Source of the DNA: an uncultured Pseudomonadota bacterium
GTDB lineage: Bacteria; Pseudomonadota; Alphaproteobacteria; Rs-D84
Assembly: GCA_902771695.1 (NCBI GenBank)
Contig: CACXXP010000001.1
Location: 45,862 to 109,861, forward strand
Length of the DNA stretch: 64,000 nt
Direction of reading: 5' to 3'
Of the stretch, positions 16,859 through 36,618 are shown in pieces. Within the stretch, counting starts at the first letter, position 1, and the number at the start of each line of letters is the position of its first letter. The notes beneath the pieces were generated by a model. That model was not told the origin of the DNA and searched no databases. It saw nothing but the letters and a program-made list of their open reading frames with translations. The position numbers and the translations under genes are program-made.

Positions 16859-17269
16859 ATGCAAACATTTATAACGAAAAATATTAACGAGACAAGAAAT
16901 TGGGCGGCGAAATTCGCAAAAACTTTGATTCAACCAACGACCGTTGCATTGCATGGCGATTTGGGTGTGGGTAAATCTGAAATTGCCCGAACAATAATTC
17001 AAACACTGTGTGGGGTGGATACCGTGGTCCCCAGTCCGACATTTACACTTGTTCAAACATATATTGCGGGAAAAATCAAGATTTCTCATTTTGATTTATA
17101 TCGGATTTCTGATGTCGCCGAATTGGTTGAAATCGGTCTTGGGTATGCGATACAGAATGATATAACTTTGATTGAATGGCCAGATATCGCGGCAGACATG
17201 TTGCCTAAAAATACGATTCACATTGATATCACAGAATTGGATGATGGACGCCAGATAGTAATTAGGTAA
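16859..17269 (+). CDS. tsaE: tRNA threonylcarbamoyladenosine biosynthesis ATPase TsaE.
   Basis: 136 aa. P-loop GDLGVGKS and the conserved SPTFTLV…HFDLYR motif. Confidence 0.8.
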   Translation: MQTFITKNINETRNWAAKFAKTLIQPTTVALHGDLGVGKSEIARTIIQTLCGVDTVVPSPTFTLVQTYIAGKIKISHFDLYRISDVAELVEIGLGYAIQNDITLIEWPDIAADMLPKNTIHIDITELDDGRQIVIR

Positions 17270-21929: not shown

Positions 21930-23186
21930 ATGATGTTTACGAAACTTGAAAGAAAAATTGCATTCAGATATTTAGCGGCAAAAAGACGTGGTTTTGGATC
22001 GGTTGTGTCGTGGGTGTCGTTGATAGGTATAATGTTGGGCGTGGCGACACTGATTGTTGTTATGTCGGTAATGGGTGGTTTTCACGATACATTGCTGTCG
22101 CGTATTGTGGGTATGAATGGGCATGTGGTTGTTTATCACCAAGATGGCGCAATCGCAGATTATGAGTTCTTAATGGATCGTATGCGTGAAAGTAAAACCA
22201 TTACCCAGGCCGTGACATCTATTGTTCCTATTGCCGAAGGCCAGGTTATGGTAACCGCCGATGGAAAGAATTCTGGTGCGATGGTTCGTGGAATACGTAT
22301 GTCAGATTTAATCACTAAAACAACAAATGGAACGCGTGTATACGGCAAAAAACTTAAAGAAGTTCGTGATGGTGAATTGGTTGTTGGGGCGACATTGGCA
22401 CGAAAATTGAATGTCGGGCGTGGTGATAATATTTCTTTGGTTTCGGCAAATGGTGCCACCGTTACTGCGTTTGGTACTATGCCGCGTATAATGTCGTATC
22501 CTGTTGTATCATCGTTTTTTATGGGAATGTATGAATACGATTCGGGATATGTGTTTATGCCACTTTCAACCGCCCAGAAATACCTGAATCTGGGAAATGC
22601 AGTGACGCATATAGATTTGTTCTTAAAAGATGCAGAAAAAACAGATGCGGTTCGTGATACATTGATTTCTGTGTTACCAGATGGTTATGTTGTGCGTGAT
22701 TGGCGTGATTTGAATCGTGGTTTTGTTGGCGCATTACAGGTTGAATCAAACGTTATGTTTTTGATTTTGATGCTGATTGTTATTGTGGCGGCATTTAATA
22801 TTGTTTCGTCATTGGTTATGTTGGTCAAAGATAAATCGCGTGATATTGCGGTGTTGCGTACGTTTGGTGTTTCGCGTCGTTCAATGATGCGTATATTTAT
22901 GTTATCTGGAACCAGTATAGGTATAATTGGCGCAATATTTGGAACGGTATTAGGGGTTGTGGTTGCGGTTTACATTGAACCGATTCGCAAATTCTTTCAA
23001 TGGGCAACGGGACGCGATTTATTCCCGGCTGAATTGTATTATTTGTCAGAATTGCCGTCCAAGGTTGAACCATTGACCGTAATCGGTATTGCCATAATTG
23101 CAATTGCATTGGCGTTTTTGGCAACAATTTATCCCGCATGGAAGGCCGCAAACACAGATCCTGTTGAGGTGTTGCGAAATGAATAA
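21930..23186 (+). CDS. lolC: Lipoprotein-releasing system transmembrane protein (LolC/E family).
   Basis: 418 aa. Four TM helices plus a MacB-like periplasmic domain and the FtsX-like C-terminal permease signature. Followed by lolD. Confidence 0.85.
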   Translation: MMFTKLERKIAFRYLAAKRRGFGSVVSWVSLIGIMLGVATLIVVMSVMGGFHDTLLSRIVGMNGHVVVYHQDGAIADYEFLMDRMRESKTITQAVTSIVPIAEGQVMVTADGKNSGAMVRGIRMSDLITKTTNGTRVYGKKLKEVRDGELVVGATLARKLNVGRGDNISLVSANGATVTAFGTMPRIMSYPVVSSFFMGMYEYDSGYVFMPLSTAQKYLNLGNAVTHIDLFLKDAEKTDAVRDTLISVLPDGYVVRDWRDLNRGFVGALQVESNVMFLILMLIVIVAAFNIVSSLVMLVKDKSRDIAVLRTFGVSRRSMMRIFMLSGTSIGIIGAIFGTVLGVVVAVYIEPIRKFFQWATGRDLFPAELYYLSELPSKVEPLTVIGIAIIAIALAFLATIYPAWKAANTDPVEVLRNE

Positions 23187-23331
23187 AGACCTTGGACAAA
23201 CAAATAAAATCTTATGGAATCAAAGTGGGTTACGTTCTTGCACCAGAAACAGCAATGGGGATAATTTCTGCACTGGAAAAAAATAAACAATATGCTATGA
23301 TAACAGAGAAACAAACACAGGAAAGGAAGTA

Positions 23332-24042
23332 ATGGCATCTATATTAAATTCTTTATCACGGGCAAAGCAGGGCGAGGTCGTCCTGTCGGTGCGTGATATA
23401 AAAAAGACATTTATAGAAGGTGGACAACCATTACATATTCTGACCGGTGGCGGATTTGATTTGCACCGTGGTGAAATTATTGCATTGGTTGGTCCTTCGG
23501 GGGCTGGTAAGTCCACCTTGTTGCAATGTGTTGGATTGTTGGATAAACCATCGGGGGGCAGTGTTTTGGTCTGTGGCACGCCTGTGCACGCAATGAATGA
23601 TGAAATGCGGACGATGATTCGTCGGCGCAAAATGGGTTTTGTATATCAACGGCACAATTTATTGTCGGATTTTACGGCACTTGAAAATGTCATGTTGCCG
23701 ATGCTTGCGAATGGTGTCGCCGAAGATGTCGCGCATACGCGTGCAATGAAATTATTAAAGGCCGCAAATGTTGCGCATCGTGCATCGCATTTGCCGGGTC
23801 AAATGTCTGGCGGGGAACAGCAACGCACGGCGGTTGCGCGTGCGTTGGCAAATAATCCTGATATATTGTTGGCGGATGAACCCACGGGCAGTTTGGATCC
23901 AAATCATGCAATTTCGGTGTTTGAATTGCTGTTGGATTTGGTGCGTAAAAATAAAATGGCGATGTTGTTTGTGACGCATGATATGTCGTTGGCGAATCGG
24001 GCCGACCGGTGTATAACAATCAAAAATGGCGTTGTAAAATAA
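23332..24042 (+). CDS. lolD: Lipoprotein-releasing system ATP-binding protein.
   Basis: Walker A GPSGAGKST, signature MSGGEQQRTAVARAL, Walker B ILLADEPTGSLD. Confidence 0.88.
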   Translation: MASILNSLSRAKQGEVVLSVRDIKKTFIEGGQPLHILTGGGFDLHRGEIIALVGPSGAGKSTLLQCVGLLDKPSGGSVLVCGTPVHAMNDEMRTMIRRRKMGFVYQRHNLLSDFTALENVMLPMLANGVAEDVAHTRAMKLLKAANVAHRASHLPGQMSGGEQQRTAVARALANNPDILLADEPTGSLDPNHAISVFELLLDLVRKNKMAMLFVTHDMSLANRADRCITIKNGVVK

Positions 24043-24060
24043 TTAAAACGGAGGGAATAA

Positions 24061-24816
24061 ATGAAAACAAATGTAAAAAGTTCATCTGGACAAAGTTGTT
24101 ATATTTGTTCACGTAAACAAAAAATATTTGCGTGGATTGCGTTGATTGGAATATTCTTGTGCGGAATGATGACAGGGGTCAGTTTGTGGGGATATAAACA
24201 TGCGCATACGGCGGATTCCGGTGTATACAACGTAAAAATGTTGCCGTGTGAAATGCGTGAGAAGGCATTGTTAGCGAATTTGTCGCAAGATATTGACGAT
24301 ACGTGGCCAGATGCGGCAAATTTTCATAAACGAAATGCAGATATTTATGATAACCTTGTGCGTGCGGGGTGTGATGAAAATAAAGAAAAATATAAAGAAT
24401 TAAGAGATGCGGAATTTAGTGTTTATGATGTTTTGCGTCACAATGGTGAATATTTGCGTGCTGTGCAGGGACAGCCGTGCCAAGTGATTGAATCAACTTT
24501 GCTGGGGTACATTAATGATTGTCCCGAATCGAACTGTCATTTGCATAATGCCGAAATTTATTCAAAGTTGGTTGAAGATGGATGTCCGGAAAATCAACAA
24601 AAATATGCCAAAAAGGCGTTGGATGAGTTGCAAATTGCCGAAGGTGTTCGTGTTGAAGAAAATGATGTTAATAAAAATGAAATGCGGTCTACGGTGAACA
24701 CTTATAAAAAATTGCAAATGCAGAACGAGGCGAAAAAGTATATCAAGAAAGTTGAAAAGTTGGTTGACCCGGGTGTTGATTTTATTATGGAATTGCAACG
24801 GGTTATTGAAGAATAA
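24061..24816 (+). CDS. Membrane-anchored hypothetical protein with internal Cys-containing repeats.
   Basis: TM helix (IFAWIALIGIFLCGMMTGVSLW). Repeats NADIYDNLVRAGCDENKEKYKEL, NAEIYSKLVEDGCPENQQKYAKKAL and NDCPESNC. Confidence 0.5.
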   Translation: MKTNVKSSSGQSCYICSRKQKIFAWIALIGIFLCGMMTGVSLWGYKHAHTADSGVYNVKMLPCEMREKALLANLSQDIDDTWPDAANFHKRNADIYDNLVRAGCDENKEKYKELRDAEFSVYDVLRHNGEYLRAVQGQPCQVIESTLLGYINDCPESNCHLHNAEIYSKLVEDGCPENQQKYAKKALDELQIAEGVRVEENDVNKNEMRSTVNTYKKLQMQNEAKKYIKKVEKLVDPGVDFIMELQRVIEE

Positions 24817-24832
24817 TACCAAGGGGAAAAAA

Positions 24833-25531
24833 ATGAATATAAAAATCTTAGGCCTTTTGGGAATATTATCAGTGGCAACGGTATCGTATGTTTCTTTTGC
24901 AGATGATACCGAGGTATTGGTTGATGATGAAGAATTTGAAGAAGCCGAAGAAGAATTAGAAGCCGGAGAAGAATTAGAAAATGAAGAAGAGGTAGAAGTA
25001 GAGGAGGTTGAGGTTGTAACCGAAACACGTACTGTTGCATCGCGTTTATCATGCGATGATGTTAAACAACGTGTTGCAGAATTGCGTGAAGATGTAAAAT
25101 CTCATCCGGAATTAAAGACCGAATTGGAAACAATGTTGGCGCGTCAACGTACACAATGTGCGCCCCGTGCGAATCGTCGGCCGGTACATAATTATGAAAA
25201 TGTAAATCCGGTTATGGTTATTGATGCGGTGCCTGTAGAAGAAGTTGTCGCAGAAGAGGTTACAGAAAAGGTTGAAACAAAACCAGCGGAACCTGTCAAG
25301 ACCCCAGAGGAAATTGCGGCCGAAGAGGCGGCAAAGAAGGCCGAACAAGAACGCATCATTGCGGAAAATCTGGCAAATGGATTATGTGGTGATGGCACAA
25401 AACCGAATCGTTACGGTTGTTGTGAAGGTGAAAAGTTCAAGGAAACGTCGCATCTGCAATTTGCTTGTTGCCCAAAAGAGGGTGATGGTGAATGTCATGA
25501 ACCGATAAAGAAGAAAACAAAGGAGAAGTAA
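24833..25531 (+). CDS. Secreted acidic protein with a Glu-rich repeat region and a C-terminal 6-Cys motif.
   Basis: RBS AAGGGGA precedes MNIKILGLLGILSVATVSYVSFA (signal peptide). EEFEEAEEELEAGEELENEEEVEVEEVEVV. C-terminal CGDGTKPNRYGCCEGEKFKETSHLQFACCPKEGDGEC. Confidence 0.55.
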   Translation: MNIKILGLLGILSVATVSYVSFADDTEVLVDDEEFEEAEEELEAGEELENEEEVEVEEVEVVTETRTVASRLSCDDVKQRVAELREDVKSHPELKTELETMLARQRTQCAPRANRRPVHNYENVNPVMVIDAVPVEEVVAEEVTEKVETKPAEPVKTPEEIAAEEAAKKAEQERIIAENLANGLCGDGTKPNRYGCCEGEKFKETSHLQFACCPKEGDGECHEPIKKKTKEK

Positions 25532-25533
25532 AA

Positions 25534-25746
25534 ATGTCAAAAATAGCAACTTTATCAAAATGGATGGTATTTTTTGGATTTGGATGCATCGTATTGATGT
25601 CTTTGGGTCTGTGGATATTGCCAATGTGGTTCAGATTGAACATCGTTGGGCAATTGAATCTTGATGCCGGCATATTAATGATGGTGTTATTTGCTTATGT
25701 TCTGACGTTGGGTATGTTCTTTTGGTTAAAGTCAGAAAAGAAATAA
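25534..25746 (+). CDS. Small two-TM membrane protein (70 aa).
   Basis: Two hydrophobic helices. Sits tightly between neighbouring genes: 2 nt after the previous stop and 1 nt before the next start. Confidence 0.4.
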   Translation: MSKIATLSKWMVFFGFGCIVLMSLGLWILPMWFRLNIVGQLNLDAGILMMVLFAYVLTLGMFFWLKSEKK

Positions 25747-25747
25747 T

Positions 25748-26212
25748 ATGTCCAAAGAGATAAAATTCTGTAAACCGGTTGGGAAATATTATTTTTTAAG
25801 CCCATTGTCAGAATTTCCAATAAAGATGTCTGTTGATGGGGTGGAATATGTTTTCCCAACCGTTGAACATTATTACCAAGCAATGAAATTTTACGCCACT
25901 GATTCGCGTTTTGCGGTTATTTTGGCGTTGAAAAATCCTGATGATGCGCGGTTGTTAACCAAAACACCTGAATACAAGGTAAACCGCCGTATTGGGTTTG
26001 ATGATATGAAATTTTCAATTATGGAAAACGCATTACGTGCAAAGTTTGCTCAGAATACAGATGCGGCCGATTTATTGTTATCAACAGGCGATGCAATATT
26101 ATCAAAATCGTGTGATGTTTGTTATCGTTGCGGTTTTGGGCGCGGCGGAAATAACCGTATGGGGCGAATGCTGATGCAAATTCGTGATGAGCTAAAGGCA
26201 AGTAAAAACTAA
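25748..26212 (+). CDS. NADAR (YbiA-like, DUF1768) N-glycosidase-family protein.
   Basis: 154 aa. Family-typical motifs FxxPLSEFP…VEHYYQAMKF…LLSTGDAIL…NRMGRMLMQIRDEL. Confidence 0.7.
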   Translation: MSKEIKFCKPVGKYYFLSPLSEFPIKMSVDGVEYVFPTVEHYYQAMKFYATDSRFAVILALKNPDDARLLTKTPEYKVNRRIGFDDMKFSIMENALRAKFAQNTDAADLLLSTGDAILSKSCDVCYRCGFGRGGNNRMGRMLMQIRDELKASKN

Positions 26213-26811
26213 TCTTGTTGTTCCGGCTTTTTATATTCGCATGCCAATTTTGAATACAACAAGTGATCCATGTATGTACCATCAGGCATACGATTTGCTT
26301 GGCGGTCTGTGCCATCAAGATGATACCCACTGGATTCAATAGATTTTATTGATTCTTGATTCCCGGCCATTGTTTGACGACATACACGATTAACTTGTAA
26401 TCTGTTAAATGCTAAATCTTCTAATTTATTGTGAACTTCGCGGTTAAATCCATGCCCCCATGCAGATTTTATAAACCATACACTTGCACACTGTAATGTT
26501 TTAGATTCTGGCCAGTAATGCACACGCATGTATCCGATAAAATTGTTGTCATGGAAAATATAATATACACATCCGTTTTTGTATTCTGAATCAAGTTTCA
26601 TACGTTCCTGAGTTTCTTCAAGAGATTGTGGCAAGTGTGACTTGCGTGATACCGAAAACCACATGTATTTAAAATCTTCTGGGTTTTCGTTTTTCAGAAC
26701 ATTCCATACAATTTGTGCATTTTCGGCATTTGGTTCCAACATGCGCAATTCCAATCGTTCGGTTTGTAGGTTCCGTCTAAACAATTCCAAGAATTTTTCC
26801 ATGAACGTCAT
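26209..26811 (-). CDS. GNAT-family N-acetyltransferase (RimL-like).
   Basis: 200 aa. IGYMRVHYW…CASVWFIKSAWGHGFNREVHNKLEDLAFNRLQVNRV… is the GNAT core. Convergent with the NADAR gene, with a 4-nt overlap. Confidence 0.65.
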   Translation of the reverse strand: MTFMEKFLELFRRNLQTERLELRMLEPNAENAQIVWNVLKNENPEDFKYMWFSVSRKSHLPQSLEETQERMKLDSEYKNGCVYYIFHDNNFIGYMRVHYWPESKTLQCASVWFIKSAWGHGFNREVHNKLEDLAFNRLQVNRVCRQTMAGNQESIKSIESSGYHLDGTDRQANRMPDGTYMDHLLYSKLACEYKKPEQQD

Positions 26812-26938
26812 ATTTATCCTTTTGTACCAGTTTTCTATTTATACATGGGAAAATGTATCAAAAAAAACCGAGAATTCAACAAAATTTTATTGACAATAAT
26901 ATGTTTTTGTATTATATTTTTTTGCAAAATAAGGAATT

Positions 26939-28207
26939 TTGATTATGCATAGTAAATTTATTGAATATTTAATGTTCTTGCGGGACAAGCTGCGTTCCAT
27001 GGATTCTGTGCACGCCAACAGGTTGCGAAATCGGGTTGATAGCATGGTGGTTCAGCTTGATAAGCATATACAAGATGTTAAATCATTGATGGCCAAATAT
27101 GGTATATCTGATTTACCAAATAATTATGACGAGTGTGAAAAATTCCTTGAAAAATATCCTGATTTACATCAAGAACATAACAAGATGTCAAAGTTGGCGG
27201 CGATTGTATCCCGTTTAATGATAAATAATCCATGGCTGTGGGAACCGGGCCGGGATGTTGGATTGTATTACGATACAACCGCATTAAAATATCGTATGAT
27301 GAAAATAGTTGATGGCGAGACGGATTATATGGCCGGTTTGCACAAACAATTAGAGGATTTAGACAACAAAATTGCTGCGACCAAGGTCCCAAATCAAGAT
27401 TTGGAAAATGAAAAAAATTATCTGGTTGAATTACTGGTGGATGAAATTGAAACTATCGGTGACAGGTTAAATACAGAATGGTGGAATGCGATTCCGCGTA
27501 TAATCAAAGAAAAATGCCACAAAAATATGGATGATTTAATGGTAGAATTGTTGGCATCAGATGATAATATTGCACGTTATATCAAGAATTATAAATCTTT
27601 AAATAGTATTTTTGTATCACCATTAGTATTAAAAATGATAGAAACCAGGATAAATGATAAAATTTCCAACATTGCCCCACCGGTTAATTTTGTTTTTATG
27701 TTTTCCCAACAAGATGGATTTGCTGGGGGAATTGATGTGGAAACTGGTGACATATGCTTTAATTTACAGTATATGGGAAAAAACGTAAATGGTTTTGTTG
27801 ATACATTGAAACACGAAGTATTTGGGCATCATTTAGACGAGCATTGTCCAAATTTTGGTTTGCGTGGCCAAGAAATGATAGATTTTGTTGATGGTTCTTT
27901 CCATGCGGTTAATGGCAAGATAGTCAGCCATACATTGAACAGCGAAGAATATATTATCGCAATTTCACCATTATTGAAACAGAGTTATTTCGTACCAGAT
28001 ATCACAAAAGGTGCAATAAAAAAATTACATGATGCAGGTTGGCGTTTCATGCAAGTAGAATATCTGGATTGTGATTCGGTTTATAATTATAAAAACATGA
28101 TGCATGAAAAAAATGCATGGTTAATTGGAAAAACAAAAAACGTTGTGAGAAAAATTGAAAAATATCGCCGATGCCATGGTTTGCCATATATAGAAAAGAT
28201 GCATTAA
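26939..28207 (+). CDS. Hypothetical protein with an HExxH zinc-metallopeptidase-like motif.
   Basis: 422 aa. LKHEVFGHHLDEH is HExxH plus a downstream His. No signal peptide. Confidence 0.45.
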   Translation: MIMHSKFIEYLMFLRDKLRSMDSVHANRLRNRVDSMVVQLDKHIQDVKSLMAKYGISDLPNNYDECEKFLEKYPDLHQEHNKMSKLAAIVSRLMINNPWLWEPGRDVGLYYDTTALKYRMMKIVDGETDYMAGLHKQLEDLDNKIAATKVPNQDLENEKNYLVELLVDEIETIGDRLNTEWWNAIPRIIKEKCHKNMDDLMVELLASDDNIARYIKNYKSLNSIFVSPLVLKMIETRINDKISNIAPPVNFVFMFSQQDGFAGGIDVETGDICFNLQYMGKNVNGFVDTLKHEVFGHHLDEHCPNFGLRGQEMIDFVDGSFHAVNGKIVSHTLNSEEYIIAISPLLKQSYFVPDITKGAIKKLHDAGWRFMQVEYLDCDSVYNYKNMMHEKNAWLIGKTKNVVRKIEKYRRCHGLPYIEKMH

Positions 28208-28278
28208 GGTTTTATTGTCGGTGTATTTATTGAAAGTATTGAATACTAATTTTATGCTATTTATGATATAATATACTG

Positions 28279-28854
28279 ATGCATGTAAATAACAATTTTT
28301 TTAATGATCTTTTTTCTAATGATTTTAATTCTGAATACGACCATTCTTGCCGTATAGAAGATTTTAATGGCCGAAAAAGTTTTCACATTGATTGCAGTGG
28401 TTTTATGTATTGGTGCCTGGCACAAATGGGGTATCGGCGGGCATTGGTTGAATTACGTGCGTTTCTAAAAGAAAATGATTTTATTAAAATAAACCGGTTT
28501 TTTTGTAAAGATTTCGCATTTATATACGAACATGCCGACAGATTCAGATACTGGCGCTTTTTGAATACACCAACACAAGATTCCGTGTTGGTGGTTATGT
28601 ATCCTGATGGCCAAGGCCATTGTATGTGGATAGATAACATTATAAATTCTGATGAAACCGAATGGTTAATGCGTGTCATAGATTCTACGCGTTTCCCCCA
28701 TAAACACGACAGTCGTATTGATGTCACCGGTATTGGTATTGGCGATATAAAGATTATTCGTTTGAATAATGGTTGGATATATGATTCTGGCAATCCATTA
28801 TTACCGCCACGTGCGGCAAAATTGTATTTCGTTTCACCGGTTAAGCAGGTTTAA
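28279..28854 (+). CDS. Papain-fold Cys peptidase/amidase-like protein (NlpC/P60-like catalytic Cys motif).
   Basis: 191 aa. FHIDCSGFMYWCL resembles the NlpC/P60 xDCSGxV Cys motif, and a downstream His sits in GQGHCMWID. Confidence 0.4.
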   Translation: MHVNNNFFNDLFSNDFNSEYDHSCRIEDFNGRKSFHIDCSGFMYWCLAQMGYRRALVELRAFLKENDFIKINRFFCKDFAFIYEHADRFRYWRFLNTPTQDSVLVVMYPDGQGHCMWIDNIINSDETEWLMRVIDSTRFPHKHDSRIDVTGIGIGDIKIIRLNNGWIYDSGNPLLPPRAAKLYFVSPVKQV

Positions 28855-28931
28855 TTTATTTGATTTTTGCAAAATTTTTGGTACCTTTGGCACAGATGGG
28901 GGGGGATGAGAGGATTATACAGAGCAGGGGT

Positions 28932-30011
28932 ATGCGTAATATGCCAGATGAACCATCATTAGCAGAAATTATCGTAGATAAAACCGGTATTGAACCAGAT
29001 CAGTATTTAAAGGGTTGTCAAGATCGGCTAAAAGAAGACGCAGATTTATCACAGGTCATTTTGAATAATACAAACCTGCGTTCTGTGGATTTAATGCAAT
29101 ATTTTCCGGTTGATCCGCATTATAATAAACTATTGGTAAATGATTTGAAACTGAGAAATTCGCGTTTTCTGAATCAGTTTGGAAATATTTATACTATGCC
29201 AAAAATACCACAGGCACGTATGGCAGATGGTGACGACGATATACATTCTGATCCAAAATTGGTCCGAATATGTGATGAATTTCTATATTTTATGTTTGGT
29301 GGGGTTTCTTTTACCTGCACCCATGATTATTGGTGGGGCCCAGACCCAAAAAGTAATGCGCATGCCAAAGATATGTTTGAAATTCAATATGGAATAAAAT
29401 TAAGTGATGTGTATATATCGTTGGAAGAATTGGCCAGTACCGCATGCATGAATTCTATTTTCACAGAAATAGATGATTTTTTTGTGACCGGTAATTACGA
29501 TAATACTGTATTAACAATTTGGGATAATGATTTACCATATGGGGCCCAGGGTTCATGCGAAAAACATGCATGTAATTTCAGACCTGTGTTTTGTGTGGAC
29601 CAAGGGGTTCCGGTTAAGTATATTAAAACAGTTAACGATGATGGTATGTTCACACGGGAATACGTGGCGGAACAACGACACAAATATGCCCAACAACGCA
29701 CACAAACATTGAAAAAGTTGGGCGAATTTTATCGGTGTAATAACCCCAACGATTATGCCGTGACCGGTTATCCAACCGATATAGATTTTATTGTAAAAAC
29801 CGGTCTGTGTGAATTTACTTTTCTGTGTTATGACCGTTCATCGCAACGGGGTGATTTTCTGATTACACGCGTTCGTTACAAAACAGATGGAACAGACCAA
29901 AAATATACAATTAACAAGTGCGATTTTAGGAATCTGCCAAGAAAGATAGATGATATCCACCGCGCCCGCGCATTACATTTTAACAAAATGTATGGTCCAA
30001 AAGGTAGATAA
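28932..30011 (+). CDS. Hypothetical protein (ORFan).
   Basis: Long ORF 28860..30011. Start assigned at MRNMPDEP. Its 3' terminal 24 nt are duplicated at 30907..30930. Confidence 0.4.
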   Translation: MRNMPDEPSLAEIIVDKTGIEPDQYLKGCQDRLKEDADLSQVILNNTNLRSVDLMQYFPVDPHYNKLLVNDLKLRNSRFLNQFGNIYTMPKIPQARMADGDDDIHSDPKLVRICDEFLYFMFGGVSFTCTHDYWWGPDPKSNAHAKDMFEIQYGIKLSDVYISLEELASTACMNSIFTEIDDFFVTGNYDNTVLTIWDNDLPYGAQGSCEKHACNFRPVFCVDQGVPVKYIKTVNDDGMFTREYVAEQRHKYAQQRTQTLKKLGEFYRCNNPNDYAVTGYPTDIDFIVKTGLCEFTFLCYDRSSQRGDFLITRVRYKTDGTDQKYTINKCDFRNLPRKIDDIHRARALHFNKMYGPKGR

Positions 30012-30014
30012 TAT

Positions 30015-30731
30015 TTATTTAGATTTTTGTTTTTCACATAAATCCAGATATTCGCGCAATATGGCGGTCATCACCGAACGATAGTCCTTTTCATATGTAA
30101 ATAATTTGCAAAAATCGTTAAATCCCGCTTCTTCCCAATCTATGATGGCAACGACGTCAAATGTTTTTGGGTCCATTATAAAATTATATTTTACATCATT
30201 TTGGCACCATCCGTGCAAGATGGATGATTTTTCAGTCGCCGTGGTTTTTAAATCGCGAATTTCTTTTGGGTCGCTGGTACCGATGATGTATAAAAACTTT
30301 GCCAATTGTTTTGCAATTTTGGATTCTATTTCTTGTGGGACTTTTTTCGGTGGAAACTGTTCAAGATTTATTCCGGCAATATATGGATATTTGCGAACCG
30401 CAATACCATCAAAGTCCAATATTTCCATATCTGGAATTGCAATAGGGGAAATTTGGCGGAATGCATCGGTAATTCGTTTTTCACGCATGGCCTTGTCATA
30501 TCCATTGCCATGGCCTGGGAATTTGAATATATATTTATTATCTGCATTTATAACCAAATTACGGGAACCATGACCGACAATCTTTTTAATATTCTTGAAT
30601 TTTCCCAATGAATTAACAAATTTAATGCATTTATTAACATAGGTGCGATTGTCCAATAAAAAGCGAACCCGATTGCGTGTGGTGCGGTTTGGAATAAACC
30701 GACAAAATAATTTGATAAAAAATTTTCCCAT
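30015..30731 (-). CDS. APH/ChoK-like kinase-fold protein.
   Basis: Gly-rich loop and Lys (GHGSRNLVINADNKYIFKFP), catalytic ILHGWCQNDVKYNFIMD (HxxxxND), and IDWEEAGFND (DFG-equivalent). Convergent with the previous gene. Confidence 0.55.
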   Translation of the reverse strand: MGKFFIKLFCRFIPNRTTRNRVRFLLDNRTYVNKCIKFVNSLGKFKNIKKIVGHGSRNLVINADNKYIFKFPGHGNGYDKAMREKRITDAFRQISPIAIPDMEILDFDGIAVRKYPYIAGINLEQFPPKKVPQEIESKIAKQLAKFLYIIGTSDPKEIRDLKTTATEKSSILHGWCQNDVKYNFIMDPKTFDVVAIIDWEEAGFNDFCKLFTYEKDYRSVMTAILREYLDLCEKQKSK

Positions 30732-30906
30732 ATTTAATCCTTTTTGGAACATGGTCGGTACAAGACAACTGTCCTAGGGCTATGGTCATAATAAATTATT
30801 TATTGTTTAGAATCAAGTAGGGGAATTCAGGTTTACCGCCAGTTATGTATTTCTTGGCTGTAATATAATACCTGTTTTTGTTGCTGTTGCGCATATTCTA
30901 TTCAAT

Positions 30907-30932
30907 AAAATGTATGGTCCAAAGGGGCGTTA
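30907..30932 (+). repeat. Duplicated 3' end, encoding …FNKMYGPKGR-stop, of the gene ending at 30011. A direct repeat of about 24 bp.
   Basis: AATAAAATGTATGGTCCAAAGGGGCG compared with AACAAAATGTATGGTCCAAAAGGTAG at 29985-30010. Confidence 0.6.
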
Positions 30933-31272
30933 GTTCTGGTCATTAAAAACCAATTTTTTGTGTTTTATAACGATAGTATATTTTTTCCTATGATGAAAGT
31001 TTTTATGAAAAATAAATATTGAAAAAATATTGGAAAACCAATATGTACAGGCCTTTTTTAATCGTATGGTACGAAATTACGTGTTTATAACACAATATTC
31101 CTAATGTGGTGGGGTTATCTTGTTGTTTATATAATGTTTTTTCTATGCCAATTGGTATGATTTATGGTTTCCTTATACCTTTTTTTAGATATCTGATACA
31201 TAAAAACAGGATAAAACAAATTTCCTGGGAATGAATATAATGTGAATAGTGTTACAACCAAAGGAGTAAAAA

Positions 31273-31500
31273 ATGACGCATCAAGATATATGGCAAGCAA
31301 TAGATAAATTCGCGTTTCAGCACAACATGTCTTGTTCCGGGTTGGCAAGATTTTCTGGTTTGGATGCGACAACATTTAACAAGAGTAAACGTTGGTCAAA
31401 GTATGGTCAACCAAGATGGCCTTCGACAAACAGTATCGCAAAAATATTAAATTCTACGGGGAAAAAGTTGGAAGATTTTGTAAAATGTATCTGCGACTAA
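31273..31500 (+). CDS. XRE-family (Cro/CI-type) helix-turn-helix transcriptional regulator.
   Basis: 75 aa. HTH segment NMSCSGLARFSGLDATTFNK. Confidence 0.6.
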   Translation: MTHQDIWQAIDKFAFQHNMSCSGLARFSGLDATTFNKSKRWSKYGQPRWPSTNSIAKILNSTGKKLEDFVKCICD

Positions 31501-31543
31501 ATATTTTTGTTTACAAAAAGGTTTGGCTGTATAATATAGAAAT

Positions 31544-32446
31544 ATGTCAACACTGAAGTCAAAGATAATTTTATTAAAAGAATTGCTGGCGTTAAAGGAG
31601 GTTGTTGATAAGGGTAGTATTCAAGTCGCCGCCGGTGAAAACGGCATCAAGAATTCTAATTTGTCCCAATTGGTCAAAAATTTAGAAGACAGATTTAATA
31701 CTAAACTTATCAACCGCGGTTTTGATGGCAGCCAACCAACAAATTCTGCCCAGCTTATATACAATGATATCTGTGCCATAGAAGAATTGCTTAACAAGAT
31801 TTCAGAAAATTTTGTAGATATGGATTCTTTATCTGGTTCTATGTCTGTGTGGACCGAAGAAGGTTTATTTGGCAGTTTCATATTGAAAGATTTGTCAGAA
31901 TTCTATGCTAAATATCCTAAAATTCGTTTGGAATTATTTATGAGAAAAGAACCAGATATCAACACGATGGATATCTTGATTATTAAACCAAAATTACATC
32001 CAAATATTCATGGTACAGTATTGTTCAAATTTAAAACTCATTTAAAGTTTTATACCAGCAAAAAATATCTGGCAGAACATGGTGTACCACAAAATATAAA
32101 TGATTTATTGGAAAATCATAATTTATGCATGGTTTATCGGTATATGAATCTGCCGGAATGTCAAAGTATTATAAAGCGTGCAAAACATTTAAACACTACA
32201 TCTGATTCATTGGCATTGATATATCGTTTGGTTAATGATGGTGATGGTATCACGGTATTTCCATCATGGTTTGAAGAAAGCAGTAAAAATCTTGTTTGTA
32301 TCAAGGACTTTGATTTTGAATATGAAATGGAAACACAATGCATGTGCAGAACAGAGATTGCAGAATCACCAAAAGTTCGTGCATTTGTTAATTTCTTTAT
32401 AGATTTCTGTACTGGTCACAATGTCCCTATTGACATATATTACTAA
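31544..32446 (+). CDS. LysR-family transcriptional regulator.
   Basis: 300 aa. N-terminal wHTH (LLALKEVVDKGSIQVAAGENGIKNSNLSQLVKNLEDRFNTKLINR) plus a substrate-binding-like C-terminal region. Confidence 0.65.
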   Translation: MSTLKSKIILLKELLALKEVVDKGSIQVAAGENGIKNSNLSQLVKNLEDRFNTKLINRGFDGSQPTNSAQLIYNDICAIEELLNKISENFVDMDSLSGSMSVWTEEGLFGSFILKDLSEFYAKYPKIRLELFMRKEPDINTMDILIIKPKLHPNIHGTVLFKFKTHLKFYTSKKYLAEHGVPQNINDLLENHNLCMVYRYMNLPECQSIIKRAKHLNTTSDSLALIYRLVNDGDGITVFPSWFEESSKNLVCIKDFDFEYEMETQCMCRTEIAESPKVRAFVNFFIDFCTGHNVPIDIYY

Positions 32447-32543
32447 TTATTTCAGTTTTTTTGTTTCATTGTGTTAAAAATGCCCCAGTGGGCGATTTGT
32501 TAACAGTGGTTGTGGGGTGCTTGCAAAATGCGGATTGAAATCG

Positions 32544-33089
32544 TTATTCAAATTGGTCTAGTTCTTTAATAAAAACATCACAATTTATAAACCAAGCATA
32601 ATGTTCAGAAAAGTTATCAAATGTTATAACATCAATATCTTTGTGGTATTTCTTTATCCATTTATATACGGTTTTAAAATCAATATATAAAAAAGTTGTT
32701 GATATATCATGTGTTTCACGAATAGACGAAAAGATGCTAAAAAATCTAGTTTTATTACCGATTTTAATTTGTGGCACAATATTCACATTTTCTAGATTTA
32801 GATAATTATTATTGCGACAATGCAACAATTTCATAATACTTTTATCTTTTGTGTCAGAAATATCAATAGGTATAAGTATTTTTGATTGTGACAATATAGT
32901 AAAAAAACGCGATAAAGTTTCATTATTTTTTAATGTTATGACCTCAGCCAATGCACTGGTTAAAGTTCCGCTAAAATAATCAGTATCGTTTTCTTGGTGA
33001 ATAATGCTGTAATCAAAATTATACTCAAAATCTTCAAAATAGTTTTCGTCCAGTACATATTCTGACAAAGATGTTTTCATGTTTGACAT
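32544..33089 (-). CDS. Hypothetical acidic protein (181 aa), downstream gene of the inverted-repeat-bounded pair.
   Basis: No motifs recognised. Very AT-rich codon usage. Its start codon lies 1 nt after the upstream gene's stop. Confidence 0.45.
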   Translation of the reverse strand: MSNMKTSLSEYVLDENYFEDFEYNFDYSIIHQENDTDYFSGTLTSALAEVITLKNNETLSRFFTILSQSKILIPIDISDTKDKSIMKLLHCRNNNYLNLENVNIVPQIKIGNKTRFFSIFSSIRETHDISTTFLYIDFKTVYKWIKKYHKDIDVITFDNFSEHYAWFINCDVFIKELDQFE

Positions 33090-33090
33090 A

Positions 33091-33633
33091 TTATTTTCTT
33101 GTTTTATGCAACCAATCGTCTAAATCTTTTAATTTCAATGATTGCCCCAAACCGTTTCTGCTTTTACAAAATTGCACCGGTTTTAACATGGCCAACTGTT
33201 TATTGGTATCTTTATCATTTAACCAAAAACCATAATAATATCCAAATACAGGAACACCGTTTTTTATGTATTTTAATAATAATTCCTTGTTTCTTGATAA
33301 AGATTTTTGTGCAAAAGTATCCCACTTCCAATGTTTACTATCGTTTGAACGCTTGGTATGATATGGATAATATTCCAACGCAAGTATATCTTTGTCTTTT
33401 ATCCCGTATTTATCAGTTTTATTTAAAACTTTATCCCACCATTCACAATATTCACGATATATATGCAAATCCATGCCAGACGATTTGTAAAAACCATCTT
33501 TATCCATAGGATATTCGGCTAACCTTTTGTAATATTTTGGGTCGCCACCAGGATTACATAACAAAATAATCAGTTTTGGTGATTTTTCATTGCCAATTCG
33601 AGATACAGGAAAAATTTTTTCTGTTTCTATCAT
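33091..33633 (-). CDS. Hypothetical protein (180 aa), upstream gene of the inverted-repeat-bounded pair.
   Basis: Rich in Tyr/Trp/Lys. No known catalytic motif recognised. Confidence 0.45.
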   Translation of the reverse strand: MIETEKIFPVSRIGNEKSPKLIILLCNPGGDPKYYKRLAEYPMDKDGFYKSSGMDLHIYREYCEWWDKVLNKTDKYGIKDKDILALEYYPYHTKRSNDSKHWKWDTFAQKSLSRNKELLLKYIKNGVPVFGYYYGFWLNDKDTNKQLAMLKPVQFCKSRNGLGQSLKLKDLDDWLHKTRK

Positions 33634-34004
33634 AATTTCTCCCTTAACAACTATATATTAATCATATTTTATAATTTATTCAACGCTATTTTGCCAGCAC
33701 CCCACAACCACTTTGAACAGATATGCTGGTTAGAGCGATTTTATGTTGGTTTTGTAATATTATGTTTTGTTCGAGTGTTATAAGCGGTTCGAAAGTGTGG
33801 ATAACGACATAATTTTTCTAAAAATTACTTTCGAACTTGGCGGAAATTTATTTTTTCACTCTCTGGAATGCGCACGAGACCTTGATAAACAATAACCAAC
33901 CGCAGGGCAAAAACTCTATTAAAAATATCCGTTTTTGTGCGGCCGCGTTTGTTCATCTGCGTATTCGCCATGCGCTTCGCTCTGGCGGATCCGTGCGCCC
34001 AGGA

Positions 34005-34038
34005 ATAAATAAAAACACCCAAAGGGGTGTTTTTGTTT
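34005..34038 (-). terminator. Rho-independent terminator downstream of tRNA-Gln. It is also usable from the + strand.
   Basis: ACACCCAAAGGGGTGT hairpin flanked by A-run and T-run. Confidence 0.6.
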
Positions 34039-34043
34039 ATTCT

Positions 34044-34116
34044 GGTTGGGGCGCACGGATTCGAACCATGATAAAGAGAACCAAAATCTCTTGTCCTACC
34101 ATTAGACGACACCCCA
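34044..34116 (-). tRNA. tRNA-Gln (anticodon UUG).
   Basis: Reverse complement folds as: acceptor UGGGGUG/CGCCCCA (U1-A72, as in E. coli tRNA-Gln), U8, D arm GUCU-AAUGGUA-GGAC, anticodon arm AGAGA-UUUUGGU-UCUCU (U33, U34U35G36), T arm CAUGG-UUCGAAU-CCGUG, discriminator A, and an encoded CCA. Confidence 0.8.
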
Positions 34117-34257
34117 AAAAGTAGTTTGATTATAGTCAGTTTTAGCTTTTTTGCAATAATAAAATAAAAAAAAGTGAATTTTGGGCTTGAAATCATAATT
34201 ATTAAAAATTATAATGATTTTTGGTTTTAATAAAAGCAAGCAGAATAGGGGGCAAAC

Positions 34258-34707
34258 ATGGTTCGTAAAGAATTGATTAGTTTGTTAGAAAAAAATATTA
34301 TTTTGTTTTCTAAATTGTCTGAACGTATAAACCGGGCCCAGATAGATTTTAGGCCGTATTCACGGACCCAGGTGCAATTGCTGATGCGGTTGTATATCAG
34401 TGGTCGGACACGTCTGAAAGACTTGGCGGCACGAGAATTTGTGCCGGCACCAAATCTGTGTGCCGCGTTTCGTAAAATGGAAAGTGATGGGATTGTTTCG
34501 CGGACCGTTGATGAAAACGATCGCCGCAACACATGGTATTCGGTGACGGAACAGGGGGCCAAGGTTGCAACAAAATTTATAAATATGTTTCACCAAGTAA
34601 TGGCGACAATGTTCAAAGATATTGAAAAGGCGGATGAAGAAAAACTGATAGAATCTTTCAAAACAATGAATTGTATTTTGGAAAAGATGGGGGATAAAAA
34701 TGCGTAA
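34258..34707 (+). CDS. MarR-family transcriptional regulator.
   Basis: 149 aa wHTH (…RTQVQLLMRLYISGRTRLKDLAAREFVPAPNLCAAFRKMESDGIVSRTVDENDRRN…), first gene of the efflux operon. Confidence 0.75.
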   Translation: MVRKELISLLEKNIILFSKLSERINRAQIDFRPYSRTQVQLLMRLYISGRTRLKDLAAREFVPAPNLCAAFRKMESDGIVSRTVDENDRRNTWYSVTEQGAKVATKFINMFHQVMATMFKDIEKADEEKLIESFKTMNCILEKMGDKNA

Positions 34708-36019
34708 GGTTTTTGGTGCTATTATTGCTCTATACGGTGGTTGCTGCGGTATACATGCATATGCGATGGATTTATCTTTGAATGATGCGGTGCAAAAAAT
34801 AGTTGCAGAATCGCATGATCTGAAAAAAGCCGATGCCAATGTAAAAAAGGCCCAGGCATCATTAGATGTCGCAAATTCAAGTCGCTGGTTCAATATAGAA
34901 GGAACGGCAACATATATGAATTTGATAAATGTTGAAAAACCGCTGGATTCGTACAATGTGAAATTACCGCCTGAAATCGGTGGTCTGATTCCGCAAATGG
35001 CGGGGATTACCGATATAGATATCCCAGATAATATCTTTATGGCCGGCGTAAAAATCACACAACCTATTTATACATTTGGTAAAATTGGTAATGCGGTGGA
35101 CAGTGTTCGCAGTGCAATAAAGATGAGTGAATACAGCAAAGAAATGGTAACGCGAGAGGTTAAATATGCCGCCGCTGATATGTATTGGACGGCAAAAATG
35201 ACCGATGAAATTGTTAAAATCGCCCAGAAAGATTTGGATAACGCCATGTCGGCCCGTAAAAAATTGTCGGGGGCGGGGCGTGCAAACCGCAGTAATTTGG
35301 TTAAAATTGAATCTGATATTGCAACAAAGAAAATTAACCTGTCGGATGCAGAATTTAATCGCGACACTTCACATCGTATGTTAAAGATATTGGCGGGTAT
35401 AGATGTGGACGAACCATTAAATCTGACCGATGAATTTCCAAAAGATTTTCCAGAAATGGAAAACAAAAAATTGACCAATACGCCGGAATGGCAGGTATTA
35501 GACCAACAGGTTAAAATGTACGAAGCCAAGGCGTCTTCACAACGTGCCGGGGGGTATCCAACATTGGCCGCGGTCGGTGCGTATGATTTTGTGACAATGG
35601 ATAAGGATTTAAAAAATATGTTTAATGGTCATGCAGACCAAGCGGCATATTGGGGATTGGCGTTAAAGGTTCCGATTTTCAGTGGTGGGGTAAATCGTGC
35701 AAATGCCACGGTTGATGCCATGAATGCCGAAGCCGCACACCAGGATTTAGATAAATCCAAAAAGATTACATCAGAAAAATATTCCAATGCAATAAAGCAA
35801 TATAATCATTTGCGTGAAAACTTAAAAGGTTTGGAAAACGCACGTGATTTGGCCGCCAAAGCATACGGTTTTTCGCGTGATCGTTTTGCGGCCGGTCAGA
35901 CATCTGCGGTTGAATTGGCGGATGTTTCATCGGGACTGTATCAATTGGATATGGCGTTGCTTAATGCAAAATATAAAATATTGATGTCGGCGGAATCTGT
36001 TAAAAAATTGGGTGAATAA
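34700..36019 (+). CDS. TolC-like outer-membrane efflux channel protein.
   Basis: 439 aa. Signal peptide and the two-repeat alpha/beta organisation of OEP family proteins. Overlaps marR by 8 nt. Confidence 0.7.
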   Translation: MRKVFGAIIALYGGCCGIHAYAMDLSLNDAVQKIVAESHDLKKADANVKKAQASLDVANSSRWFNIEGTATYMNLINVEKPLDSYNVKLPPEIGGLIPQMAGITDIDIPDNIFMAGVKITQPIYTFGKIGNAVDSVRSAIKMSEYSKEMVTREVKYAAADMYWTAKMTDEIVKIAQKDLDNAMSARKKLSGAGRANRSNLVKIESDIATKKINLSDAEFNRDTSHRMLKILAGIDVDEPLNLTDEFPKDFPEMENKKLTNTPEWQVLDQQVKMYEAKASSQRAGGYPTLAAVGAYDFVTMDKDLKNMFNGHADQAAYWGLALKVPIFSGGVNRANATVDAMNAEAAHQDLDKSKKITSEKYSNAIKQYNHLRENLKGLENARDLAAKAYGFSRDRFAAGQTSAVELADVSSGLYQLDMALLNAKYKILMSAESVKKLGE

Positions 36020-36021: not shown

Positions 36022-36618
36022 ATGAAAATATTTGGAAAAAATTATGATGATGAAAAGGTAAAAAAAATCTCCTATAGGGCGACTTTTGTGCTTGTCATAC
36101 TGTGGTTTGTATATCGTTTTGTTATGGTTGCAATTGAATCACAAATGACAGTGTTTAATCCAATTCGTATTTCTCAATCCAATGGCACGATTGTTGAAAC
36201 AATGGTTGCATCCAAGAAAAACGATTTTATTAAAATACCAATTGATATAAAAAATAATCGTGCGTATGTATCTGGTGAGTACCGCAATAAATTACGCAGT
36301 GGGCAAAAAATTGGTGATGGCGAAATTGTTTCTGTATCGGGTGGTTTAGATTTGGATACAGGAATGTATGTTGTGCGGACACGTGGGGTGACGGATGGGG
36401 TTGCGTTTGTGTCTGTTCCTGCAAATGGATATTTTATTCCGGCCTATGCGGTGCGTGATGGTACCGTTATGATAATGGAATCGGGAACGGCGGTGGCGCA
36501 TCGTGTGGATGTTGTTGCCCAAGATACAGAATATGCGTGTGTGACAGGTGATATCAAAGATAGTGATGTAATCGTATTGTCCAAGGTTGCCACAGGCCAG
36601 AAAATAAAAGTTAAATAA
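36022..36618 (+). CDS. Truncated membrane-fusion (periplasmic adaptor) protein-like component.
   Basis: 198 aa. N-terminal TM anchor followed by beta-rich segments resembling MFP beta-barrel/membrane-proximal domains. No coiled-coil hairpin is apparent. Confidence 0.45.
   Translation: MKIFGKNYDDEKVKKISYRATFVLVILWFVYRFVMVAIESQMTVFNPIRISQSNGTIVETMVASKKNDFIKIPIDIKNNRAYVSGEYRNKLRSGQKIGDGEIVSVSGGLDLDTGMYVVRTRGVTDGVAFVSVPANGYFIPAYAVRDGTVMIMESGTAVAHRVDVVAQDTEYACVTGDIKDSDVIVLSKVATGQKIKVK

Follow-up and report, generated by a model that had tools for sequence, protein, structure and literature searches.

How does a streamlined bacterial genome without obvious mobile elements maintain a locus whose content differs even between strains that are otherwise 99% identical? 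The question is raised by the interval between lolD and a tRNA-Gln gene (positions 24061-34116) in a 64,000-nt stretch of contig CACXXP010000001.1, to which we refer as the window. The host organism is Candidatus Enterousia (order Rs-D84), a reduced-genome gut organism for which an intracellular life is not established; the genomes of these gut bacteria measure about 0.75-1.0 Mb, and a partner organism is not known (PMC12306168). Yet about 100 gene families occupy this one locus across 27 species. On balance, we favour the view that the ruminant clade of Candidatus Enterousia has a plasticity zone in this interval rather than one island, and that a recombinase acting in trans serially inserted small modules at tRNA 3' ends, after which strains recombined with one another. 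Integrase-less insertion of this kind would explain the flexible gene pool of streamlined, uncultured gut bacteria. Central to the argument is a structured element of ~140 nt beside the tRNA gene, here called E.

The locus was compared with 20 conspecific contigs, found by exact-protein look-ups and originating from cattle and other ruminant metagenomes, and with 80 loci from a one-genome-per-species scan with LolC, mostly labelled Candidatus Enterousia or "Alphaproteobacteria bacterium"; L-numbers (L001 etc.) denote the compared contigs and loci. Cargo was mapped in 27 genomes; cargo families are those of our own clustering of open reading frames (ORFs), and a sample of them was annotated with Pfam.

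Conserved backbone and two variable slots

Mapping of the proteins onto the 80 species loci separated four layers of conservation. The left anchor, outside the variable zone, is the ABC ATPase gene lolD (23332-24042, + strand; Pfam ABC_tran, E-value 3.5e-31), with 75-96% amino acid identity over these loci. Directly after it, in nearly all 80 species, comes g251 (24061-24816, +), encoding a membrane-anchored protein of 251 aa with two internal Cys-containing repeats and no Pfam family; its identity is 42-64% where that of lolD is 89-96%, and falls to 24-35% in a distant clade. The next gene, g233 (24830-25531, +; 233 aa, with a signal peptide, an acidic region and a Cys-rich C-terminus, no Pfam family), mostly follows as well, and its family, F2, stands after g251 in all 27 mapped genomes. 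Judged by sequence comparison, g251 is a genus-wide, fast-evolving backbone gene and g233 a backbone gene of the ruminant clade. Further to the right, an XRE-like gene (31273-31500, +; 75 aa, with a weak HTH_26 match below the Pfam threshold) and a LysR-type regulator gene (31544-32446, +; HTH_1 and LysR_substrate above the threshold) are found at 86-95% amino acid identity in at least 13 species; the pair is conserved in the clade and divides two slots from each other. Conservation also covers the XRE promoter/operator region (31175-31272, +), where blastn identity of 71-87% to 14 species is confined to ~95 nt, and the remaining AT-rich spacer (30934-31174) is not conserved across species by blastn. 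The right anchor and proposed insertion target is tRNA-Gln(ttg) on the minus strand (34043-34116; ARAGORN, Rfam tRNA score 57.7 bits), so that its 3' end does point into the block, as an original prediction for this DNA had stated. The right flank tRNA-Gln-MarR-OEP-RND occurs in 11 species, throughout the clade with LolC at 83% or more; in the distant clade, tRNA-Gly/tRNA-Tyr stand in place of the tRNA-Gln flank.

The two slots behave differently from this backbone. Slot 1 (25534-30900, from g70 to the kinase gene) holds lineage-restricted cargo: its genes for g70, NADAR, GNAT, an HExxH protein, an NlpC-like protein, g383 and a kinase recur in part, with 39-86% identity, in the three closest species (L021, L022 and L024) and in none of the others. 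Other species carry unrelated genes here, and in L030 and L080 the XRE promoter/gene follows directly after g233. It may be that slot 1 consists of older lineage-restricted cargo whose entry route left no trace. Slot 2, the interval between LysR and tRNA-Gln, contains different genes in every species. Together the slots yielded about 100 cargo families in the 27 genomes, among which the sampled annotations include deaminase, YjbR, histidine phosphatase, PMP, collagen, BspA-LRR, Slam, outer membrane proteins (OMPs) and a C5-methylase/NgoFVII restriction-modification (R-M) pair.

Base composition follows the same division. The zone has a G+C content of 0.352, compared with 0.398 ± 0.009 for windows of equal size in the rest of the 64 kb (z = -5.2), none of which is as AT-rich; composition thus deviates from the core in the sliding-window check suggested with the original prediction, and gene order is not conserved in relatives, the reverse of the finding that would have refuted that prediction. 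The deviation is uneven: g251 and g233 together are core-like at 0.402, slot 1 has a value of 0.353 (z = -3.9) and the module in slot 2 one of 0.313 (z = -4.4), with the lowest values at LysR (0.33) and at the two-gene unit of slot 2 (0.26-0.31). The proposal that the whole 10 kb is lineage-specific did not survive, given g251/g233 that are genus-wide with core-like G+C and a clade-conserved XRE/LysR pair. We do not regard the interval as one island, because its sub-blocks vary independently and its backbone genes are conserved: four of the 13 genes belong to the genus or clade backbone, and the rest resolves into two slots that vary independently of each other, together with a kinase unit and a replacement haplotype seen at strain level. 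Synteny gave a mixed answer, in that gene order differs among relatives and an empty tRNA-Gln site exists in some strains, while backbone genes are interspersed.

Strain-level polymorphisms and their breakpoints

Among the conspecific contigs, breakpoints could be read at 98.7-100% flank identity. The kinase unit (30005-30900, -; 896 bp) is present or absent; in L005 and L014, position 30004 is joined directly to 30901. It is bracketed by a 26-nt direct repeat (29979-30004 / 30901-30926), which is the duplicated 3' end of g383. The decayed gene fragment noticed earlier is real and lies here: the remnant at 30889-30933 (+) encodes AHILFNKMYGPKGR*, a duplicate of the final codons of g383 that matches its 3' end at 10 of 10 residues by tblastn, and it contains a breakpoint common to three haplotypes. 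Type-B strains (L001, L002, L004 and L008) diverge from the window at 30905, carry an Abhydrolase_1 (alpha/beta hydrolase) gene, a gene for 249 aa and a Peptidase_S66 gene where the window has XRE, LysR and the two-gene unit, and become alignable again in the E region, in which their E allele is another one. Both the kinase-unit and the type-B polymorphisms look like recombination at short homologies.

The polymorphism on the tRNA side is of another appearance. A slot-2 module of 1.5 kb (32516-34031) is absent in L014, L015 and L018, where 32515 is joined to 34031 at 98.7% flank identity, leaving an empty site of the order LysR-terminator-tRNA with no gap between terminator and tRNA. An imperfect repeat of ~22 nt, ATTTGTTAACAGTGGTTGTGGGG / TTTTGTTTATTCTGGTTGGGGCG, makes the exact position of the junction ambiguous; the repeat corresponds to the last ~10 nt of the tRNA plus 12 nt of trailer, and it looks like an attachment-site repeat. 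Its left copy runs on into a degenerate version of the tRNA segment from T-loop to CCA (32507-32541). Presence or absence with an intact empty site at the tRNA was found for 32516-34031 only; the idea of tRNA-Gln as an integration site is thus supported for the rightmost 1.5 kb and not for the whole 10 kb.

Elsewhere in the window, a gene for a 405-aa MFS transporter (40337-41554, -; G+C 0.359), located between HAD and RmuC, is absent from the conspecific L012 and present in L011 and L013, and is another strain-level indel.

A structured element whose arms follow the tRNA

What, then, marks the tRNA side of slot 2? Left of the tRNA gene stands a block that is conserved across species and consists of the right arm of an inverted repeat, GTTCGAAAGT boxes, the ~140-nt E and a terminator shared with the tRNA. 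Two exact boxes, inverted and 30 nt apart, lie at 33787-33836; in tRNA-Gln loci, where they are conserved upstream of E, the block contains two or three, and a variant form is found in tRNA-Tyr loci. In L039 the boxes are present and E is absent. E itself (33862-34000, +) is predicted from fold and covariance to form a closing helix P1, a long arm P2-P3 and a 3' hairpin P4. Its 5' side, TCTGGAATGCGCACG, resembles the tRNA-Gln end on this strand and is oriented like the tRNA gene's own 3' end, and its 3' side (33989-34000, ATCCGTGCGCCC) is a sense copy of the tRNA-Gln end. The bidirectional terminator hairpin that E shares with tRNA-Gln occupies 34003-34042. A repeat of the tRNA end ATCCGTGCGCCCCA, for which a search further left had been suggested, is present (33989-34002), although it is inverted rather than direct and just 41 nt from the tRNA.

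The fold of E is well supported. Its folding z-score against shuffled controls is -5.8, and RNAalifold on 13 copies gave 32 pairs, 10 of them with compensatory changes. With a covariance model, 50 copies of E were found in the species loci and in rumen metagenome contigs; 97.0% of the cells in their alignment are paired, a figure somewhat inflated by fitting of the alignment to the model, and an independent MAFFT alignment gives the same helices. Changes on both sides are seen in 18 of the 32 pairs, slid controls pair at just 28-48%, and the observed value was reached in 0 of 500 shuffles for four of five measures and in 1 of 500 for the fifth (further pair types). An Rfam 15 scan of 23000-35000 at an E-value of up to 1 returned only the tRNA and no match for E. 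The layout of closing helix, long arm and 3' hairpin superficially recalls the tRNA-like domain of tmRNA; ARAGORN found no tmRNA in the window, and 6S RNA, tmRNA and a Y-RNA-like tRNA mimic were rejected as identities of E, there being no Rfam or ARAGORN signal. Viral contigs searched with the invariant 17-mer of E gave six matches, all due to chance in unrelated high-GC DNA. E is an undescribed structured element, and it offers a concrete, testable object: a strongly covarying structure with arms that follow the adjacent tRNA.

This last property is seen throughout the comparison set. Each copy of E lies convergent, across the terminator, either to a tRNA or to a tRNA 3'-end copy that has decayed; E and terminator are followed by tRNA-Gln in ~30 copies and by a decayed tRNA-end copy in at least 12 others, and several loci have two copies of E, either in tandem or separated by cargo. 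In the distant clade, the same scaffold is convergent to tRNA-Tyr, and its flanks are replaced by tRNA-Tyr sequence. There the 5' flank exactly repeats the final 15-16 nt of the tRNA, in the orientation that this 3' end has in the tRNA gene, and reads as the complement of the tRNA end on E's strand; it tracks three T-stem alleles of tRNA-Tyr (GGCTGG, GGGTG and GGAAG), and the 3' flank is a sense copy of 11-17 nt. The flank match is likewise exact for full tRNA-Gln copies (L040, L168) and for the CGCTCCA allele of tRNA-Gln (L103). In the tandem of L078, the flank is perfect in the E copy next to the tRNA and decayed in the more distant one. The layout therefore reads tRNA end, terminator, inverted copy, scaffold, direct copy, with a junction at the T-loop edge. 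In L043 (17380-20342) and L036 (14765-14880), a perfect 19-nt tRNA-Gln 3' end abuts the same element end of ~115 nt (ACAGACATTG...), next to different cargo. The two next ORFs of L043 (358 and 329 aa) probably encode the C5 DNA methylase and the NgoFVII-type endonuclease of the pooled Pfam scan.

Copies of the tRNA end also border the slot-2 module. The two-gene unit had been described as bounded by an inverted repeat, and the repeat is indeed there: its arms (32495-32529 / 33688-33722) measure 35 nt and are 89% complementary, with a 25-nt core for which 0.00 occurrences are expected by chance. The core of the left arm is a degenerate copy of the tRNA-Gln 3' end (32507-32541, +; T-loop to CCA with an insertion of ~10 nt), which forms the left border of the module. 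A direct repeat of the tRNA end thus exists within the zone, but none was found on the lolD side, where a single 10-kb island would have its distal attachment repeat. The same degenerate variant follows E and terminator in L038, L041, L040, L138, L149 and L164. The right arm (-) consists of the inverted degenerate tRNA-end motif and 12 flanking nt, and the same inverted motif pair brackets a permease gene (L037) and a BspA-LRR gene (L039). We considered whether the inverted repeat marks the ends of a transposon and rejected this, as the right arm includes an inverted copy of the 12-nt flank and belongs to the conserved block upstream of E.

Similar units were noticed beside E and at other tRNA genes. 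Some loci have a second small unit (~110-150 nt) that is rich in hairpins, placed between E and the terminator in L040 (~16780-16900), L041 (20287-20440) and L043 (17210-17350), and between E and tRNA-Tyr in L078, L096, L086 and L070; it holds GATTTGGC...GCCAAATC and CCGCAAC...GTTGCGG stems and is bracketed by a tRNA-end-like copy and an inverted copy. In the window itself, a perfect 68-nt direct repeat with 176-nt spacing (2944-3187) starts in the T-loop of tRNA-Met (2888-2962, +) and includes the terminator. It brackets a different folded insert of ~110 nt in the same layout as with E, whose closing helix on the tRNA strand is formed by a degenerate inverted copy and a direct copy of the tRNA-Met end; the folding z-score of the insert is -3.8 on the + strand and -1.1 on the - strand. 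An APH-like kinase gene (3290-4162, G+C 0.305) comes after this unit. At 7978-8628, tRNA-Thr is followed 31 nt on by a gene for 181 aa that looks GNAT-like (G+C 0.348); no repeat of the tRNA-Thr end was found within 4 kb.

How modules may enter and turn over

The tRNA-side slot is built of small modules (0.2-3 kb) that carry no recombinase. On the tRNA side they end with E and a terminator, and each has as its border a copy of the tRNA's final 15-20 nt, from the T-loop edge to CCA; the freshest copy is nearest the tRNA, and the units differ between strains. We suggest that new modules enter at the tRNA 3' end via a crossover at the T-loop edge, which would be made by a recombinase encoded elsewhere. 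An incoming module would give the tRNA a new 3' end and terminator and shift older modules outward; the displaced tRNA-end copies would then decay, and modules might later be lost or exchanged between strains by recombination at these repeats and at other short homologies. The model of island growth beside a tRNA is that of the tycheposon paper (bioRxiv 10.1101/2020.12.28.424599).

Several observations weigh against this reading. No tyrosine recombinase was found in the Enterousia loci, using Pfam on about 70 cargo proteins and a crude motif search, and no excision product or circular junction was observed. The border repeat of the slot-2 module is imperfect (about 17/23) and could be mere deletion microhomology. 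The kinase and type-B breakpoints lie in a gene remnant rather than at att-like sites, and so fit homologous or illegitimate recombination better than site-specific recombination. Slot 1, more than half of the zone, has neither a tRNA-end repeat nor a remnant of E at its borders. Every sequence compared is a metagenome assembly. Finally, insertion by the classical model leaves the inverted tRNA-end copy beyond E and the strong fold of E unexplained. The sole recombinase found among the cargo of the 27 genomes is a small serine recombinase of 199 aa in L043, encoded after the two ORFs mentioned above.

The island concept as such is known; what is new is its integrase-less modular form together with E. 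The tycheposons of Prochlorococcus are also hypervariable, tRNA-adjacent islands of a streamlined genome, in which partial tRNA copies are scattered, newer insertions are nearest the tRNA with older ones pushed outward, and most of the material is degenerate and lacks an integrase (bioRxiv 10.1101/2020.12.28.424599). What defines them, however, is the possession of replication modules together with a tyrosine or large serine recombinase, of which about 30 loci here yielded none save the one small serine recombinase, and modules of 0.2-3 kb that each end in a folded E with an inverted tRNA-end copy are not described for them. Comparable, too, are the cis-mobilizable elements (CIMEs) of the literature on Streptococcus ICEs, which are flanked by att sites, have no recombination genes and are moved in trans by a related integrase. 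Like the zone, they have att-type repeats at a tRNA-like target, no integrase, tandem accretion and presumed mobilisation in trans; in Enterousia the att region is a structured element of ~140 nt with covariation, and no helper ICE or IME is known in this genus. In pdif modules of Acinetobacter plasmids, gene modules are flanked by inversely oriented XerC/D sites, and varied cargo between the same inverted ~30-nt sites without a recombinase is what the window, L037 and L039 also present. The arms here differ in being derived from tRNA 3' ends instead of dif, in being chromosomal, and in that the right arm is part of the block upstream of E; they share just TGTTAA with the XerD arm, and a dif/Xer site was set aside as a reading.

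If classical insertion leaves E itself unaccounted for, could E be the agent? We put forward, tentatively and as a possibility that we would not bet on, that E and at least two other folded units of its layout, the extension unit of L040, L041 and L043 and the tRNA-Met unit (2998-3140), represent an undescribed kind of miniature tRNA-homing element. Such an element would have a conserved scaffold and a closing helix that is a duplex copy of the 3' end of its target tRNA; a folded single strand (or RNA) would present this copy of the target site, and a host-encoded recombinase would insert the element at the T-loop edge. It would carry terminators and, in larger versions, cargo, and might in this way build the hypervariable islands of these ~0.9-Mb genomes without an integrase of its own. 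Folded single-strand recombination sites are known from integron attC and from the attP hairpin of CTX phage (XerCD), and in CTX phage the stem of the folded strand rebuilds a duplex copy of the chromosomal target. E resembles these sites as a hairpin at cassette borders with conserved structure, variable sequence and no recombinase in the cassette. Its closing helix would likewise rebuild the tRNA end, and the product order predicted by a folded-strand model of the CTX attP or attC type (target copy, loop, inverted copy, rest, target) is exactly the order of parts observed; such a model would also explain the match between arms and tRNA. The zone differs from both systems in that no IntI was found, the ends of E lack a GTTRRRY/RYYYAAC pair, no dif-like 28-mer is present and the target is the T-loop edge of a tRNA; single-strandedness is here wholly conjectural. 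A literature search on folded-strand attP at tRNA genes returned nothing comparable. If the match between arm and tRNA does direct insertion, it would be a new way to specify a recombination target. A role of E as RNA, for example by pairing with the tRNA 3' end, may be considered on an equal footing with the folded-strand model.

The g180/g181 pair and the function of the cargo

The module in the window carries two genes on the minus strand, g181 (32544-33089; 181 aa, no Pfam family, a weak SseB match below threshold) and g180 (33091-33633; 180 aa, no Pfam family). For g180 there are 28 homologue clusters, and only 14 for g181. For an AF2 model of g180 (pLDDT 93, pTM 0.90), the top ~35 PDB matches are uracil-DNA glycosylases (UDGs) of family 4, UdgX, TDG and SMUG1 (E-value 1.5e-3), and UDGs also come top in a viral structure library, with TM-scores of 0.41-0.49 over both libraries. 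An Asn (N27) in an LLCNPGG motif after strand 1 is invariant in the 28 homologues, and this N-P-G is placed as in the UDG family 2 and 3 motif G-[IM]-N-P-G. The model thus places g180 in the alpha/beta fold of the UDG superfamily, which includes the anti-phage protein Brig1, even with the low TM-score. It differs from known members in its TM-score of ~0.45, its identity of ~10%, the lack of a recognisable second motif and its constant pairing with a second small gene. The match to NCBIfam Brig1 (E-value 0.003; 17 bits, with a cutoff of 230) is faint and serves as a lead only. We consider g180/g181 a probable DNA-glycosylase module on the strength of this model, and a candidate for a new two-gene kind, which may act in defence, as a toxin/immunity pair or in repair.

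Homologues of the pair are again adjacent in L102/L103. Those of L103 belong to a second tRNA-Gln array with other chromosomal surroundings, GyrA-MerR-GSHPx-tRNA-Gln-E-GIY-YIG-171aa-g180-g181-E, where the g180 homologue is preceded by the block known from the window (box, ~70 nt and inverted-repeat arm). In L101 (4277-6961; GCA_029060095.1, a more distant alphaproteobacterial metagenome-assembled genome), the g180 homologue overlaps a different partner of 149 aa and adjoins a Tlde1-domain gene (T6SS effector-type), tRNA-Ser and a phage-lysozyme/Mu-F gene.

Does the cargo serve defence? An island for defence or antagonism against phages or competitors, an idea compatible with any mechanism of insertion, is possible, if rather doubtful. 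It invokes NADAR, GNAT, the UDG-fold glycosylase and the kinases of the window together with the R-M genes and deaminases of relatives. NADAR weakly matches PDC-M42C (E-value 2.5e-5) and the anti-phage NADAR model DS32_2 (51/240 bits), g180 has its UDG fold with the faint Brig1 match and a homologue beside a Tlde1-domain gene in L101, and the slots of relatives hold C5-methylase/NgoFVII R-M, NERD and a MafB19-like deaminase. Against this, PADLOC 2.0 found no complete system, neither PADLOC nor NCBIfam gave a match at curated cutoff, and much of the relatives' cargo is surface or ordinary metabolic in kind (PMP, collagen, LRR, Slam, OMP, SDR and histidine phosphatase). For the effector repertoire of an intracellular alphaproteobacterium, which had also been proposed, there is no positive evidence, and no eukaryote-type domain was found in the window proteins. 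The only hint of this type comes from another species: a 1175-aa relative of the HExxH protein (L036 15869-19396) has a sub-threshold match (residues 901-964, E-value 5e-4) to PRANC, an F-box-like domain of eukaryote interaction.

Alternative explanations for the modules and for E

Could the zone have arisen without any site-specific process? It might be a tolerant region in which genes turn over by homologous recombination on the anchors and by illegitimate recombination, possibly with DNA uptake (a ComEC gene is nearby), and in which local duplication, or extension of palindromes around the terminator, gave rise to the copies of tRNA ends and of E. Breakpoints situated in a gene remnant or in microhomology, as for the kinase unit and type B, are what such a process would leave. 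The strong conservation of the anchors would suit it too, as would the presence of a Competence/DUF4131 gene in the flank and the tRNA-Met unit, which has the look of a perfect tandem duplication. In addition, the sense tRNA-end copy, the terminator and the tRNA end make up a single long palindrome that template switching could extend. What it does not account for is that the same E scaffold stands beside two tRNAs with flanks exact to each over 15-16 nt, that the g180/g181 module is found in tRNA-Gln arrays of two different chromosomal contexts, that different cargo in L036 and L043 abuts the same perfect 19-nt tRNA end and element end, and that junctions fall repeatedly at the T-loop edge. 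We consider this explanation unlikely.

It is similarly improbable, in our view, that E is mainly a small regulatory RNA or a mimic of the tRNA 3' end that lies at module borders incidentally. The 5' strand of E is complementary to the last 16 nt of the tRNA, so that it could pair with the tRNA or its precursor, and the match between the two would then be functional. This would suit the strong covariation, the conserved boxes upstream and the terminator downstream, and the complementarity to the CCA end; on the tRNA-antisense strand, G.U (71) is also commoner than A.C (16), a signal that stems mostly from two helix-end pairs. On the other hand, a scan for sigma-70 promoters upstream of E in the window predicted none, E is wholly absent from the conspecific L014 and L015 and from L039 and L046, and the extra copies precede decayed tRNA-end fragments instead of tRNAs. 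Should an RNA made from E indeed pair with the tRNA 3' end, E would define a new class of small RNAs directed at tRNAs.

One classical island of ~10 kb, reaching from lolD to the tRNA and inserted by a tyrosine integrase since lost, as the original prediction had it, is very improbable: low G+C, a position adjoining a tRNA 3' end, many products without a known family and an order not conserved in relatives would fit, but it is already largely refuted by the synteny data, with g251/g233 and XRE/LysR conserved across species, core-like G+C in g251 and g233, no tRNA-end copy on the lolD side and sub-blocks that vary independently between strains.

Other genes of the zone

The inventory of the zone is based on an ORF listing and Pfam scans of the products between lolD and tRNA-Gln, and it confirms the descriptive part of the earlier account, from the gene content, low G+C, gene remnant, AT-rich spacer and inverted repeat to tRNA-Gln and the absence of an integrase: none of the 13 window products has an integrase or transposase domain in Pfam. 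Slot 1 begins with g70, an ORF of 70 aa without a Pfam family. NADAR (25748-26212, +; PF08719, 78 bits, gathering score 35.1) and GNAT (26209-26811, -; above the Pfam threshold) are followed by the HExxH protein (26939-28207, +), which has 422 aa, an HEVFGH motif and no Pfam family. The NlpC/P60-like protein (28279-28854, +; 191 aa) reaches 16.1 bits for PF00877, below the gathering score of 23, in a match limited to the segment that holds a DCSGF motif. Next come the ORFan g383 (28860-30011, +; 383 aa, no Pfam family) and the APH-like kinase (30015-30752, -), which is borderline for PF01636 (23.7 bits, gathering score 23.2). The non-coding AT-rich stretch between the kinase and XRE is real (30753-31272, G+C 0.30).

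Sequence search gave no PDB relative for the HExxH, g383 and NlpC-like proteins. The HExxH family comprises only 8 clusters among 5.8e9 proteins, and a model from these 8 homologues, with a pLDDT of 63 overall and of less than 50 in the catalytic half, is not good enough for its fold to be compared.

Two further genes outside the zone deserve mention. On the minus strand at ~17271-19052 (L001 3940-5721), a 593-aa product has precomputed Pfam matches for FtsA/PilM_2 and ribulose-phosphate 3-epimerase, an unusual fusion, if real. In the RND operon, where a periplasmic adaptor of ~350-400 aa normally lies between the outer-membrane factor and the pump, this place is taken by a gene (36022-36618, +) for 198 aa without a Pfam family, which is found at 54-63% identity in relatives.

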